64,000 nt of DNA, from IMG/VR virus record IMGVR_UViG_3300020463_002440, positions 32,001 through 96,000 of that record; one strand, written 5' to 3'. The position numbers were made by a program, and so were the translations under genes. Position 1 is the first letter of the stretch. Each line of letters begins with the position of its first letter. The notes beneath the pieces are model-generated. The model saw only the letters and a list, made by a program, of their open reading frames with translations, ran no database searches and had not been told where the DNA came from. Positions 18,734 to 35,018 of the stretch are shown piece after piece. Origin of the DNA: a virus.

Positions 18734-18762
18734 TTGACATTTTCTTTTAACTTTGATATAAT
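18734..18762 (+). promoter_or_regulatory. Early sigma70-type promoter
   Basis: TTGACA(18734)-17-TATAAT(18757). Confidence 0.9.
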
Positions 18763-18769
18763 ATACATT

Positions 18770-19327
18770 ATGAATATTTTTATTTTAGACAACGATCCAA
18801 TAAAAGCAGCTCAATCTCAGTGCGACAAGCATGTCGTAAAAATGATTATTGAGTCTGCTCAGATGTTATCGACCGTTCATCGTATGTTGGACGGCAAAAT
18901 GGAACGCAGGCCTTCAAAGTCTGGTTCTATGTTAAAGTATTATTACCTTGAAGACAGTCGAGAAGATACACTCTACAAAGCCTGTCATCATAATCATCCG
19001 TCCACAGTTTGGACGAGAGAATCCAAAGCCAACTATGATTGGCACTACAAACACTTTGTTGCGTTATGTGATGAATACACTTATCGTTATGGTAAGATCC
19101 ATATGACAGATACTAAATTAAGACAAGCATTAAAATATTTTCCAACTAATATACCTGATATAGGACCAACTAAATTTAAGTTAGCAATGAGTTCTAATCC
19201 TGAGTGTATATTTGAGGATGCAGTTAAATCGTATCGTGCTTTTTATCATACCAAAGAAGAAAGATTTAAATTGGTGTGGAGTAAAAGACCGATTCCTGAC
19301 TGGTGGCAAGGTCGGAGATTAGCTTAG
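18770..19327 (+). CDS. Pyrimidine-dimer DNA glycosylase/DenV-family protein
   Basis: MNIFILD..P..AAQ..CDKHVVKMI.ESAQMLST, H.NHPST.W.RES..NY.W, L..EYTYRYGK.H. Confidence 0.75.
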   Translation: MNIFILDNDPIKAAQSQCDKHVVKMIIESAQMLSTVHRMLDGKMERRPSKSGSMLKYYYLEDSREDTLYKACHHNHPSTVWTRESKANYDWHYKHFVALCDEYTYRYGKIHMTDTKLRQALKYFPTNIPDIGPTKFKLAMSSNPECIFEDAVKSYRAFYHTKEERFKLVWSKRPIPDWWQGRRLA

Positions 19328-19798: not shown

Positions 19799-19999
19799 AT
19801 GGAAATACCAGCAGTAAGTTCTACAGGACCTACTCCAACTTATCGGTTTCAACAGAATAATGTTGAATATGATACTCGTACTGTTAAAGTAACAACAAAA
19901 GTAATGAACGATTATCAACAAGAAACAATTTACACATACGATAAGTATGGCCACTTACAGTCAACAGTGATTCACAAATCGGATATTGCTTTAATATGA
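19799..19999 (+). CDS. Hypothetical protein
   Basis: GAGGA SD; YTYDKYG motif. Confidence 0.6.
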   Translation: MEIPAVSSTGPTPTYRFQQNNVEYDTRTVKVTTKVMNDYQQETIYTYDKYGHLQSTVIHKSDIALI

Positions 20000-20187
20000 T
20001 ATCAGATTTTACACTTTTTAATGTTTCTATTATTAATCCATCCACAATGGAAAAAATTGACCAAGGTGAGATGAGATATAAACACGCAAAAGATTTTCTT
20101 AATAAAATGGATAAGAAAGGAATACCTGTAATTGTTGAAGCAATCAACGATTCTGATGTAGCAGATTTCATATTATCAAATAATTAA
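19996..20187 (+). CDS. Hypothetical protein
   Basis: ATGA coupling; 63 aa. Confidence 0.6.
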   Translation: MISDFTLFNVSIINPSTMEKIDQGEMRYKHAKDFLNKMDKKGIPVIVEAINDSDVADFILSNN

Positions 20188-20206
20188 ACTTTTTTCATAA
20201 AAACTA

Positions 20207-20235
20207 TTGACATTCATTATGAACTATAGTATAAT
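20207..20235 (+). promoter_or_regulatory. Early sigma70-type promoter driving the non-coding unit
   Basis: TTGACA(20207)-17-TATAAT(20230). Confidence 0.9.
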
Positions 20236-20241
20236 AGACGT

Positions 20242-20922
20242 ATATTGAGGGAAACACCCCCGACTCGCAAGAGAAATGGTAAAATGCAATTACCAAAGCG
20301 ACGGAGATATCTCGAGGTCATAAAAGTTGTTCTTATCAAACAAAGGCCGAGAAAAAACAGGTGGACAAACCCGACTGGCAGCTGAAGCTGTTGAGTATAT
20401 CCAATCGTAACAGATATATTCGGACAGAGTAATGAGAGGGCCAATACTGGAAAGTATGTAATTATACGGGTACAGAACAAATCAATAGAGACTGAGGCGA
20501 GCCCGAGTTTGAAGAAACGCTCGAAACTAAAGTGGATTAAATTCCCGCAGTCCGAAAAGAGATAGGTTTAGCTTGCAAGCTAAACGACACAAGACGGCAG
20601 TCTAGGATCTTCTCTTTTTTACTTGAGAGTATGCTTAAGTGTTACCCAAGAAACTAGAGTTAACGAAGTACGATGTAAGTCCGAGGCCAGCCAGTCGACC
20701 TAATAGTTTTACTTGGAATGCTACGATTAACAATTCAGCATTATTTAACGAATTACGTTAACACAGCATTCCATTTTCTAGGTGGTTAGAAACCGCAGCT
20801 TAGTCGGCTGTTCCTTTAGAAAGGATCCAATAACAAATGACGATTGTGAGGCATGAGTTCTACACCGAGGCGGTTCTTGTCATACCTTTGATGGGTGTAT
20901 ATGGAAGAACCGCCGTTTTTTT
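20242..20922 (+). ncRNA. Candidate large structured non-coding RNA (~620-680 nt)
   Basis: No + strand ORF in the track over ~700 nt of a gene-dense genome; own promoter and terminator; more GC-rich than flanks; over 12 local hairpins (GCAA and GGAA tetraloops) plus nested long-range helices. Confidence 0.75.
20869..20922 (+). terminator. Intrinsic terminator closing the ncRNA, just upstream of hemC
   Basis: GGCGGTTCTT(20869-78)/AAGAACCGCC(20905-14) followed by G-T7. Confidence 0.75.
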
Positions 20923-20936
20923 ATTAAGGACATAAT

Positions 20937-21779
20937 ATGATTCCATTAATTGGAACAAGAAAATCAAAACTTGCTCTTGCATATACTAACAAAGCAATAA
21001 AACGTTTAGATATTTCACTTACAACTGTCCTCATTGATTCAGAAGCAGATCTTAAACCTGATGTTACTATTGAAGAATTAGGTAATAAAGGAGTCTTTTC
21101 TAAAGAGGCTGAAACCTCTCTAATTAATAATCATATTGATATTGCATGTCATGCATACAAAGATCTTACAAGAGATAACGATCACCTTCTAGAAATATCC
21201 TGCGTACTACCAAGAGCTGACTTTAGAGATTGTTTAATTGGTAATAATATAAATCCAAGAACAATAGGTACAAGCTCTCCAAGAAGATTATTTCAATTAC
21301 AAGAATTATATCCAAATGCACAGATAGTTCCTATTCGTGGTAACATAGATACTCGAATACAAAAACAAGAGAACGGTGAATATGATGCAATTGTTTTAGC
21401 AAAAGCTGGTCTTGATTCTTTAAACCTTACTCACAAAGCAAGTAGAATATTTGGAACTGCAGATATGTTGCCTGCACCAGGACAAGGAGTTATTGCTTTA
21501 CAGACAAGAATACCAAATAATGATAGAGATCGCGATATTACAGGAATGTTATGGGCAAGAAATCATATTGACACTTGGTATACAGTAATGGCTGAAAAAG
21601 CAATGCTTAAAGAAATAAATGGAGACTGCCATACTCCAATTGGTGTATTATCATATGTTGAAAATAATACATTACACATGGTTGCGAAACACTTTGAAAC
21701 AGATAAGCTAAGTTTGAATAAAGGTCCTATTGAAGAATATAATGAAATAGGTTCGCAGCTCGGCAAATCTTTAATATGA
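20937..21779 (+). CDS. hemC: Porphobilinogen deaminase (hydroxymethylbilane synthase)
   Basis: IGTRKSKLA, G.KGVFSKE, H..KD (catalytic Asp), GTSSPRR, IRGNIDTR, DAIVLA.AGL, PAPGQG, GDCHTPIG (cofactor Cys). Confidence 0.92.
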   Translation: MIPLIGTRKSKLALAYTNKAIKRLDISLTTVLIDSEADLKPDVTIEELGNKGVFSKEAETSLINNHIDIACHAYKDLTRDNDHLLEISCVLPRADFRDCLIGNNINPRTIGTSSPRRLFQLQELYPNAQIVPIRGNIDTRIQKQENGEYDAIVLAKAGLDSLNLTHKASRIFGTADMLPAPGQGVIALQTRIPNNDRDRDITGMLWARNHIDTWYTVMAEKAMLKEINGDCHTPIGVLSYVENNTLHMVAKHFETDKLSLNKGPIEEYNEIGSQLGKSLI

Positions 21780-22611: not shown

Positions 22612-23922
22612 TTAGAATAAGTTAGAGATTCTTACTTTTCTGTAATACTTGTTGGTATCCTGAGTCAATGCACCAGAACCTTGTGAGGCTCCTTCAGCAA
22701 AAGGATTAGCAACCATACCGTAACGAGTTTTAAAACCAATTTTCGGTTGGAAACTATTTTCACCAACGGCACGAACCATTTGCAATGGTACGTAAGGACA
22801 ATAGAATAGTCCAGCGTCAAATGCGCTTGAACCTTTATATCCAACTACTAAGTAGTTTCCGCCTGCGAAAGGATCAACATATACTCTGAATCTTCCGTTA
22901 AGAACACCAGCAAAAGTATTGCCTGTGTCATCAACTTCTAGATTGTTAGAGTTAAGAGCAGGAGTATAGTCGAGAACGCCAGCCATTTGAAGTGCTGAAG
23001 CAACATCAGAAGAACAAATAACAACGTTACCTTTTCCTCTTCTTGTATCTTTAGCGATAGCATTAGCTTCTTGCTCGATTTGGAACATTAAGCCTTTGAA
23101 CTTCTCAACTGACCATCTTCCGTTGGAATCAACGTCAAGGTCGAATACACCAGCAGATGCAGTACCAGCGGCACCTTCAACAGCAGTTGTATAAATTGTT
23201 CTAACAACTTCTCTATTGATCTCTGTTAGGATTTCAGTTTGAAGAATGTTAGCAAGTTCTGTTTCAGCGTCTAAGCCGTGAACAGCCTTAAGATCCTGAG
23301 CAAGCTCAGTTGTATACTCAGCCTTTAGGGCACGAGTCTTAGCAGATACAGTAACCTTCTCGATTGAGAATGCCATTTCTGCATAGTTAGTACCATTACC
23401 ATCACCTAAAGCTTCCGCTTCAGTTGTTCCCATACCAGTACCAGTTGTAATCAACGTAGTATTAGCATTAGGAAGTGTGTTAGCATGAGTACCTGCACCA
23501 GCGAAGTCTGTATCAGCTTCGTTGTACATTGCTTCTGCACCACCTTGTGAGCTGTATCTTGAACGCATTGCGAAGATAAGTCCTGTAGGACCTGTCATCG
23601 GCTGAACACCACAGATGTCATATGCGATTAAGTTAGGTACAGCACGTCTTACCAATGAGATAAGAATTGGGTCGTAACCTGCAACTGGACCAGTTGCTGT
23701 AGCTCCACCACTAAATCCACCTGTTGAGGCGTCGTTAGCATGTGTCTCTGACAACAATGAAGTCATGTTAGCAGATAAGTCACCAGACTCAGTTAGTGCT
23801 TTTTCAGTGTTCTCAAGAATAGTAGCCGTAACTGCTTTTCTATGATTATCACTGATTGGTGAAAAAGATTCGTGCTCTAAGATAGGCTCCCACTTTTCCA
23901 CTAGTCTTTGATAGTTATCCAT
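22612..23922 (-). CDS. gp23: Major capsid protein (T4 gp23)
   Basis: KWEPIL, LVRRA.PNLIAYDICGVQPMTGPTGLIFAMR, FSIEKVTV.AKTRALKAEY, FYCPYVPL, FQPKIGFKTRYG. Confidence 0.98.
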   Translation of the reverse strand: MDNYQRLVEKWEPILEHESFSPISDNHRKAVTATILENTEKALTESGDLSANMTSLLSETHANDASTGGFSGGATATGPVAGYDPILISLVRRAVPNLIAYDICGVQPMTGPTGLIFAMRSRYSSQGGAEAMYNEADTDFAGAGTHANTLPNANTTLITTGTGMGTTEAEALGDGNGTNYAEMAFSIEKVTVSAKTRALKAEYTTELAQDLKAVHGLDAETELANILQTEILTEINREVVRTIYTTAVEGAAGTASAGVFDLDVDSNGRWSVEKFKGLMFQIEQEANAIAKDTRRGKGNVVICSSDVASALQMAGVLDYTPALNSNNLEVDDTGNTFAGVLNGRFRVYVDPFAGGNYLVVGYKGSSAFDAGLFYCPYVPLQMVRAVGENSFQPKIGFKTRYGMVANPFAEGASQGSGALTQDTNKYYRKVRISNLF

Positions 23923-34329: not shown

Positions 34330-35018
34330 TAGTTATCACTTATTTGTATATTTTCACTAAATGGATCTACTTCTGAGAAATCTAATATACTATCGCCTTC
34401 AACTTCAAAGTCAAGGTTACGAGCAAGATCATCAGTTGTTGAGATTGCATTTAGTGTTGCGTTATTTGCGTCAACAATAATATCAGTATTGTAAGCAGCA
34501 AAGTAATCGTCAATGTTAGAACGACCTGTATTAAATCTTTGATTACTGTATTCTATTAATTCACATACCATATCATAGACTTGTGTTTGTCCCATTTGAT
34601 AGAATATGCTTTCATGTTCGACATTCTTAATTTCAAAAATCTTTTCATTAAGTGGGAAGTAAATTAAATCACCTTCTCTTGGACGAATAAGATCAACAAC
34701 TTCTCGAGTCACATGTCTTTCAAAAGTTCTATTAGCAACTGTAAGTGTTAATTGATCTCTTATTTGTAATCCAAACTTAGATAAGAAATCGCCTTCTCCT
34801 TCAAAGCCTTCCATATTTTTAACATAAGCTTCAAATTCAAAAGTTTCGTTGTACTCTGGGAAATCATCTTCGTTGAAAATTTTGTCACGGCCTTTGATTG
34901 CTCTACTGATGTAAATGACATCAACACCGTATTGCTTGATGGATTCAATAACTAAATCATCAATTAAGGTTTGCTCTGATATTCTAGCGTAATTATTAAA
35001 AAATACATTAGTTGCCAT
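34329..35018 (-). CDS. gp14: Neck protein (T4 gp14)
   Basis: EQ.LI.DLV.ESI..YG.DV.YI.R, GF.G.GD.LSKFG, RP.EGDLIYFP. Confidence 0.94.
   Translation of the reverse strand: MATNVFFNNYARISEQTLIDDLVIESIKQYGVDVIYISRAIKGRDKIFNEDDFPEYNETFEFEAYVKNMEGFEGEGDFLSKFGLQIRDQLTLTVANRTFERHVTREVVDLIRPREGDLIYFPLNEKIFEIKNVEHESIFYQMGQTQVYDMVCELIEYSNQRFNTGRSNIDDYFAAYNTDIIVDANNATLNAISTTDDLARNLDFEVEGDSILDFSEVDPFSENIQISDN

Follow-up and report, generated by a model that had tools for sequence, protein, structure and literature searches.

A predicted large structured RNA gene with two modules, from an uncatalogued family of uncultured marine T4-like phages

Large, ornate RNAs are rare in bacteria and phages, and the few that are known (GOLLD, ROOL, OLE, and raiA) have recently been shown in unexpected RNA-only assemblies. 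Phage T4 itself encodes the species 1 and 2 RNAs (rnaC and rnaD; 120-140 nt), which lie in its tRNA cluster, are co-transcribed with the phage tRNAs, and are freed by tRNA-processing enzymes. GOLLD is a phage-borne RNA of more than 600 nt with an ornate fold, which is encoded beside tRNA genes and was seen as a nanocage by cryo-EM; its 3'-part is conserved, its 5'-part is variable, and it has been found in marine metagenomes (PMC12286853). ROOL, with a size of about 580 nt, forms an octameric nanocage, is encoded in phages and prophages near tRNA islands, and has no known protein partner (PMC12286853). Structured RNAs have also been predicted from covariation in a survey of IMG/VR, and the candidates of that survey all have sizes of 29-151 nt (PMC10690425).

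Here, we analyzed a window of 64,000 nt, which is part of a 156-kb IMG/VR virus record. The presence of a Gp23 capsid gene (22612-23922; Pfam E 4e-147) shows that the phage is T4-like, and the nearest cultured relatives are merely about 65% identical in Gp23. Between an ORF of 63 amino acids and hemC, a gap of about 750 bases was found, in which the ORFs do not exceed 87 aa (20188-20936). An earlier note on this DNA had proposed that the gap contains a large multi-domain structured non-coding RNA of a T4-like phage, with its own promoter and terminator, and both the covariation described below and the Gp23 gene uphold this proposal. With a probability of roughly 0.9, the region is predicted to be a plus strand gene for a large structured non-coding RNA, belonging to an uncatalogued family that is found only on contigs of uncultured marine T4-like phages and is built from two modules, a core of nested helices and a conserved 3'-domain. 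The features of the locus are compiled in Table 1.

Table 1. Predicted features of the RNA gene and its neighbors (window coordinates)
Feature	Position	Strand	Remarks
63-aa ORF	19996..20187	+	syntenic left neighbor; upstream of the RNA in many relatives (tblastn)
Promoter (predicted)	20190..20235	+	A/T-rich upstream box plus -35/-10 hexamers, 17-nt spacer
RNA gene (predicted)	20242..20922	+	about 681 nt, from inferred +1 to end of U run
Module A, 5' core	20242..20700	+	about 460 nt; in nearly all family members
P1	20243-20248 with 20482-20487	+	closes first subdomain; 99% of cells paired
P3	20260-62/20302-04; 20265-68/20298-301	+	encloses P4; as many as four pair types at one position
P4, optional hairpin	20277-82/20290-95	+	missing in L130-type members
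P6 hairpin	20327..20343	+	7-nt loop 20332-20338 near-invariant
P8	20370-73 with 20467-70	+	G-C and A-U 10 times each at one position
P7	20376-79 with 20440-43	+	C-G alternates with U-A
Optional inserted hairpin	20388..20427	+	in 8 of 26 aligned sequences; contains 9-bp stem 20393-20401/20413-20421
GGAA-capped hairpin	20444..20457	+	at least 8 different stem sequences, same loop across family
P9	20490-20505 with 20682-20696	+	closes middle subdomain
P11 hairpin	20506..20528	+	near-invariant purine-rich internal loop; 98% of cells paired, double changes in 4 of 7 pairs
P10	20550-20554 with 20671-20674	+	four pair types at two positions
P13	20559-63 with 20607-11	+	encloses palindromic hairpin 20566-20585 and small hairpin 20592-20603
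Long hairpin	20714..20773	+	variable outer stem 20714-22/20765-73; invariant inner 10 bp 20727-36/20750-61
Four-way junction	20781..20866	+	stem 20781-91/20858-66; hairpins 20795-20811 and 20813-20824; third arm 20825-20854
Terminal hairpin + U7	20869..20922	+	stem of 10 bp, with covariation; 26-nt top (20881-20906) invariant
hemC, porphobilinogen deaminase	20937..21779	+	PF01379 at 4e-56, plus PF03900

Both ends of the predicted gene are marked by recognizable signals. The sigma-70-type promoter predicted at 20207-20235 matches the consensus at 12 of 12 positions of its -35 and -10 hexamers, and the start of the RNA was placed 7 nt downstream. A promoter of the same type is present in every homologue, at an equal distance ahead of the start. 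The box, comprising the A/T-rich element and the hexamers, recurs about 10 times elsewhere in the 156-kb genome, and from the promoter type we infer that it belongs to a repeated early class of the phage. The copies of this early-type box are spread through a plus strand block of small ORFs (e.g. G000:C1:37912-37964 and 34729-34771). At the 3'-end, a stem of 10 bp with 6 G-C pairs (20869-20878/20905-20914) is followed by seven T residues (20916-20922), which by sequence criteria qualifies as a putative intrinsic terminator in the window; a simple terminator scan misses it because the loop is longer than 8 nt. Within the RNA the G+C content is 0.40-0.43, compared with 0.29-0.35 in the flanks. 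The perfect promoter, the 10-bp stem with its T7 run, the elevated G+C content, and the absence of a credible ORF from about 700 nt had all been described in the earlier note, and were found again here. The note had also tied the RNA to a folding energy better than that of shuffled sequences. Indeed, none of 120 shuffles was as good as the plus strand, but the folding energy is merely modestly better than chance (z = -2.6, versus -2.1 for the other strand). The genome contains one copy of the RNA. Concerning expression, one marine RNA library contained two short contigs of relatives (167 and 108 nt), which cover only 20368-20490 and might stem from DNA carry-over.

Homologues were gathered with nhmmer searches of capsid-gene neighborhoods, followed by scans for conserved blocks and then by profile searches. 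About 120 homologous loci, 64 of them distinct after dereplication, were retrieved from IMG/VR and from metagenomes in the public domain, with Tara and GOS contigs among them; all are marine viral or metagenome contigs. The family spans phages with capsid proteins that are 66-88% identical. The window RNA was matched over its full length by L015/L095 (nhmmer E 3e-62) and by many other loci, and the E values with members linked to a tRNA-Glu gene ranged from 3e-62 to 7e-93, also over the whole length. A blastn search in distant mode with the region against 50,697 GenBank phage records gave no match. In bacterial and archaeal genomes (one per species), a pattern search yielded six matches, which were all due to chance and none of which had an nhmmer hit. 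No publication describing the RNA was found in the literature.

No reading frame is conserved in any of the six frames among 26 members; the longest ORF of each (31-107 aa) varies from member to member in its strand, its frame, and its sequence. The known RNA families were then considered. At the gathering score, no Rfam 15 family matched anywhere in the window, and when E values up to 10 were allowed for 20150-20980, the sole match was isrK, with an E value of 3.8 and on the wrong strand. Twelve homologous loci yielded only the neighboring tRNAs, and L095, a relative of 760 nt, had no RNA-family match at E values up to 10. The GOLLD covariance model matched neither the window region nor the 760-nt relative, even at E values up to 10 with permissive filters, and the ROOL model did not match the window, the region, or the relatives. 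Group I and II introns, RNase P RNA, OLE, T-box, and the cobalamin riboswitch likewise had no Rfam match, and ARAGORN detected neither a tmRNA nor a tRNA in the window. Because no Rfam 15 family matches, the RNA is not ROOL, GOLLD, RNase P RNA, tmRNA, or an intron. The earlier note had left a choice between a distant ROOL or GOLLD relative and a new class; the former is thus abandoned, and the latter is retained. Likenesses to the P4 strands of RNase P, to a B12 box, and to a T-box, which were noticed by eye, were also rejected, as Rfam gave no match at E values up to 10 and the same bases pair elsewhere with covariation.

The secondary structure was analyzed comparatively for both modules. 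In alignment A1, which consists of 26 core sequences and has a consensus of 69 pairs, 94.5% of the cells can pair, versus 80% in shuffled and 35-42% in slid controls, and for the 3'-domain (13 sequences) the values are 96.6% versus 32-44% in slid controls; all of these pairing percentages are inflated, because the tested structures were derived from the same alignments. Double changes were observed in 44 of the 69 core pairs (12-17 in slid controls) and in 25 of the 63 pairs of the 3'-domain (3-6 in slid controls), and the check for covariation among homologues, on which the earlier note had staked its RNA, thus turned out in its favor. G-U cells outnumber A-C cells (98 versus 20 and 22 versus 3), a bias to which the consensus search itself contributes by favoring G-U. 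This excess fits an RNA that is read from the plus strand, and the orientation of the promoter and the terminator agrees.

The map of the core differs considerably from that in the earlier note. The five long-range core helices proposed there (20372-79/20690-97, 20420-25/20679-84, 20468-72/20643-47, 20490-94/20548-52, and 20555-62/20611-18) did not survive the comparison: 65.8% of the cells pair in 26 homologues, versus a mean of 66.0% after shuffling, and the covariation is no better than in slid controls. The place of the first of these, an 8-bp helix to 20690-97, is taken by P8 and P7; a pattern scan with the region of this 8-bp helix gave no match, and the segment is specific to the phage of the window. 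Similarly, the CTC-GCAA-GAG hairpin gives way to a covarying helix (20265-20268/20298-20301), and the outermost helix (20317-31/20832-41) has to be dropped, as it bridges modules that are found apart from each other in relatives, and both of its strands have other pairing partners. In contrast, the GGAA-capped hairpin (20444-20457), the 9-bp stem (20393-20401/20413-20421), and the palindrome (20566-20585) gained comparative support.

Several core helices are supported by compensatory changes or by exchange of whole stems. In P1, one change from U-A to C-G is present in L074, the most divergent member. P9 exists in three unrelated sequence versions (the WIN, L130, and L113 types), and in each case both strands match. 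The inserted hairpin has a different sequence in the L095 type, but the same two stems. For P13 and the hairpins that it encloses, 98-100% of the cells are paired, and double changes are present. The loop of P6 (20333-20337) may form a pseudoknot with 20458-20461, a candidate for which two members with a U to C change in the loop also have an A to G change in the proposed partner. Palindromic kissing loops, which would be a sign of self-assembly, were not seen; most loops of the 20566-20585 hairpin belong to a single type, which is not palindromic.

The 3'-domain has a length of about 210 nt and starts at about 20714 with a long hairpin, which is followed by a four-way junction and then by the terminal hairpin. 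Its mean column identity is 77%, compared with 59% for the core, and it contains long invariant runs. The long hairpin adopts the same fold in all 15 members that were tested, with differing outer stems, and one compensatory change in its inner stem was found in L109. The outer stem had been claimed as 20714-22/20765-73 in the earlier note, and it is supported as a 9-bp helix. In the four-way junction, compensatory changes in the stem are present in the window's own sequence, and the third arm bears an invariant 17-mer (20833-20849). The hairpins at 20795-20824, which had been described as three consecutive hairpins at 20782-20825, have comparative support.

Within the long hairpin, a stretch of about 40 nt (20725-20763) is nearly invariant, and such very long conserved stretches, together with the apical part of the terminal hairpin, could also be expected if the conservation served a function of the DNA, e.g. 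as a region bound by proteins, or as a replication origin at which a transcript in an R-loop provides the primer. A strong promoter at the start, as is present at the T4 origins oriF and oriG, would be in line with this alternative. However, the compensatory changes preserve helices of the RNA, many of the pairs are G-U and would thus be A-C mismatches on the other strand, and a DNA site has no need for long-range nested helices. A DNA-level element is therefore regarded as very improbable.

The comparison of the family members revealed that the two modules occur separately in relatives, and thus the RNA is, by prediction, a composite of the core and the 3'-domain. The 3'-domain is present in 18 of the 64 distinct members, and in 11 of these 18 the next gene encodes tRNA-Glu(UUC). 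This gene starts only about 10 nt after the 3'-domain, which leaves no room for a promoter, and the U run after the terminal hairpin is sometimes broken in such relatives. A tRNA promoter hidden in the loop of the terminal hairpin was considered and rejected, because the hexamer that resembles a -35 element lacks conservation, and members that have no tRNA retain the motif all the same. In L242 (2300-2900), and likewise in L246 and L249, the 3'-domain and tRNA-Glu are found behind an unrelated 5'-segment of about 170 nt, which has its own promoter and an ORF of nine codons. Therefore, the 3'-domain may be an independent RNA element. A natural mini RNA is encoded in L108 (IMGVR_UViG_3300044272_003866, 2000-2400), which combines the first approximately 110 nt of the core with the 3'-domain. 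L108 shares the synteny of the window (63-aa ORF, RNA, hemC) and lacks the tRNA-Glu gene, while the gene order of L106 is 63-aa ORF, RNA, tRNA-Glu, and hemC. Neither the window nor the whole 156-kb record contains a tRNA gene, and these two syntenic relatives show that the arrangement of the window is derived and results from a secondary loss of the tRNA.

The window RNA also has the appearance of a mosaic. The P3/P4 region and the version of P9 are as in the hemC-linked L094 type, the inserted hairpin is as in the tRNA-linked L130 type, and the 3'-domain is nearest to that of L108. This make-up points to recombination between family members.

The core is found in at least four downstream settings, i.e. 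before tRNA-Glu, before hemC, before a gene for a small membrane protein, or with a terminator of its own, behind which a new promoter lies. In one sub-lineage (L109, L111, and L119), about 150-400 nt past the RNA, the small membrane-protein gene is followed by a new promoter and then by a gene with a bS21-like product, a likeness that was read by eye from the translation. On the other side of the RNA, the window contains an ORF of 197 aa (18734-19327) with a borderline match to the pyrimidine dimer DNA glycosylase family PF03013 (23 bits, at the cut-off).

Could the region be merely a degenerated protein gene, or what is left of a mobile element, without a present function? Related phages either have or lack the cassette at this place between the two neighboring genes, and its modules are shuffled as in mosaic "moron" insertions, both of which might be read in this way. 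Yet, conservation was absent from all six frames, the promoter has been conserved, the family has been maintained across the above-mentioned range of capsid divergence, and the covariation, which indicates strong purifying selection on pairing, largely refutes a remnant. We thus regard this explanation as hardly credible.

The proximity of tRNA-Glu and hemC raised the idea of a link to heme biosynthesis, with tRNA-Glu as the substrate of glutamyl-tRNA reductase. However, the genome encodes a 5-aminolevulinate synthase (TIGR01821, 560 bits; G000:C1:14118-15311, about 17 kb ahead of the window start), and no glutamyl-tRNA reductase domain was found in the genome. The idea was rejected because the genome thus has the C4 route and lacks the reductase domain. 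The match to the synthase includes one in-frame TGA, which could be a sequencing error, the result of two genes, or a recoded stop.

The gene order might instead suggest a cis-acting leader or attenuator, in which the fold would respond to a signal and thereby determine the extent of read-through into tRNA-Glu or hemC. In the window, hemC begins only 14 nt past the U run, and no promoter of its own is visible. Throughout the family, hemC follows directly after the RNA, or after the RNA and tRNA-Glu, in 28 of the 64 distinct members; 18 of these 28 lack both the long hairpin and the 3'-domain, and no strong terminator was seen in those that were read. In addition, polymerases must read through the same hairpin, with its sometimes broken U run, in the tRNA-linked members. 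All of this would be compatible with a leader, but other observations argue against it. In some members, the core is followed by a strong terminator of its own and then by a fresh promoter, and in others it lies ahead of unrelated small genes. Five syntenic relatives that were found through hemC have no RNA, and the 63-aa ORF adjoins hemC; hemC therefore does not need the RNA. Furthermore, no known riboswitch or T-box model matches, the size of 500-750 nt is far above that of known leaders, and the C4 route to aminolevulinate removes the logic of a connection from tRNA-Glu to heme. Taken together, a cis-acting leader seems unlikely.

We favor a trans-acting RNA, and a scheme for its formation and action can be outlined. 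The host RNA polymerase would transcribe the RNA from the sigma-70-type promoter of the early class, a step that is deduced from the promoter alone, and the 5'-end would be locked into helix P1. In the presumed ancestral arrangement, which is still seen in relatives, the RNA and tRNA-Glu would be parts of a single transcript, because the gap between them measures only about 10 nt and contains no promoter. Cleavage by RNase P at the 5'-end of the tRNA would then release the RNA from the precursor; this step rests on established tRNA processing. The tRNA has been lost in the phage of the window, and therefore the terminal hairpin and U7 would end the transcript. Read-through is the only visible route by which hemC could be reached in this phage. 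Overall, we lean towards this account of transcription by the host polymerase, ancestral release by RNase P, and hairpin termination after loss of the tRNA as the probable one.

The mature RNA might then serve as a compact and stable scaffold or particle of the GOLLD or ROOL kind that works in trans. It could bind a protein, the ribosome, or a tRNA partner, or it could self-assemble, as GOLLD and ROOL do; neither antisense pairing nor the switching of a single gene would be involved. The retention of the core fold across at least four downstream settings speaks for a role in trans, but the specific proposal of a scaffold or particle is speculative and by analogy, and we hold it only tentatively. 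For the explanation as a whole, comprising the gene, its transcription and processing, and the trans-acting scaffold, we see the chances as slightly better than even. An extended version is still more doubtful: it would make the RNA a further class of giant phage RNA, with two independently exchanged modules, which is released by RNase P from a tRNA-Glu precursor, forms a compact and possibly self-assembling particle, and takes part in the handling of tRNAs or in translation early in the infection of marine bacteria.

With its more than 60 distinct sequences, this additional and unrelated family would provide a good subject for cryo-EM and for the question of why phages couple giant RNAs with tRNA genes. 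Its modular variants, i.e. cores with or without the 3'-domain, the mini form, and the forms without a tRNA, represent a ready-made natural deletion series. The results also show that current annotation and Rfam overlook non-coding genes of abundant marine T4-like phages. The present analysis contributes the division into two modules, the mini variant and the variants without a tRNA, and a corrected map of the helices.

How does the RNA compare with the known large or viral RNAs? With rnaC and rnaD it shares that it would be a non-coding RNA of a T4-type phage; in contrast to them, it is five times larger, has several domains, and has no match among the GenBank phages. The candidates of the IMG/VR survey originate from the same kind of viral contigs, but they are far shorter, and a single hairpin of the window RNA might be among them (PMC10690425). 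ROOL falls into a similar size class and is also carried by phages, whereas it stems from the rumen or from Lactobacillales and the window RNA from marine T4-like phages. The family resembles GOLLD in that it is large, phage-borne, found next to tRNA genes, and more conserved in its 3'-part than in its 5'-part, which is a resemblance and not a membership; its helices and conserved motifs are different. The RNA is placed outside the GOLLD and ROOL families, but is of the same broad kind as both.
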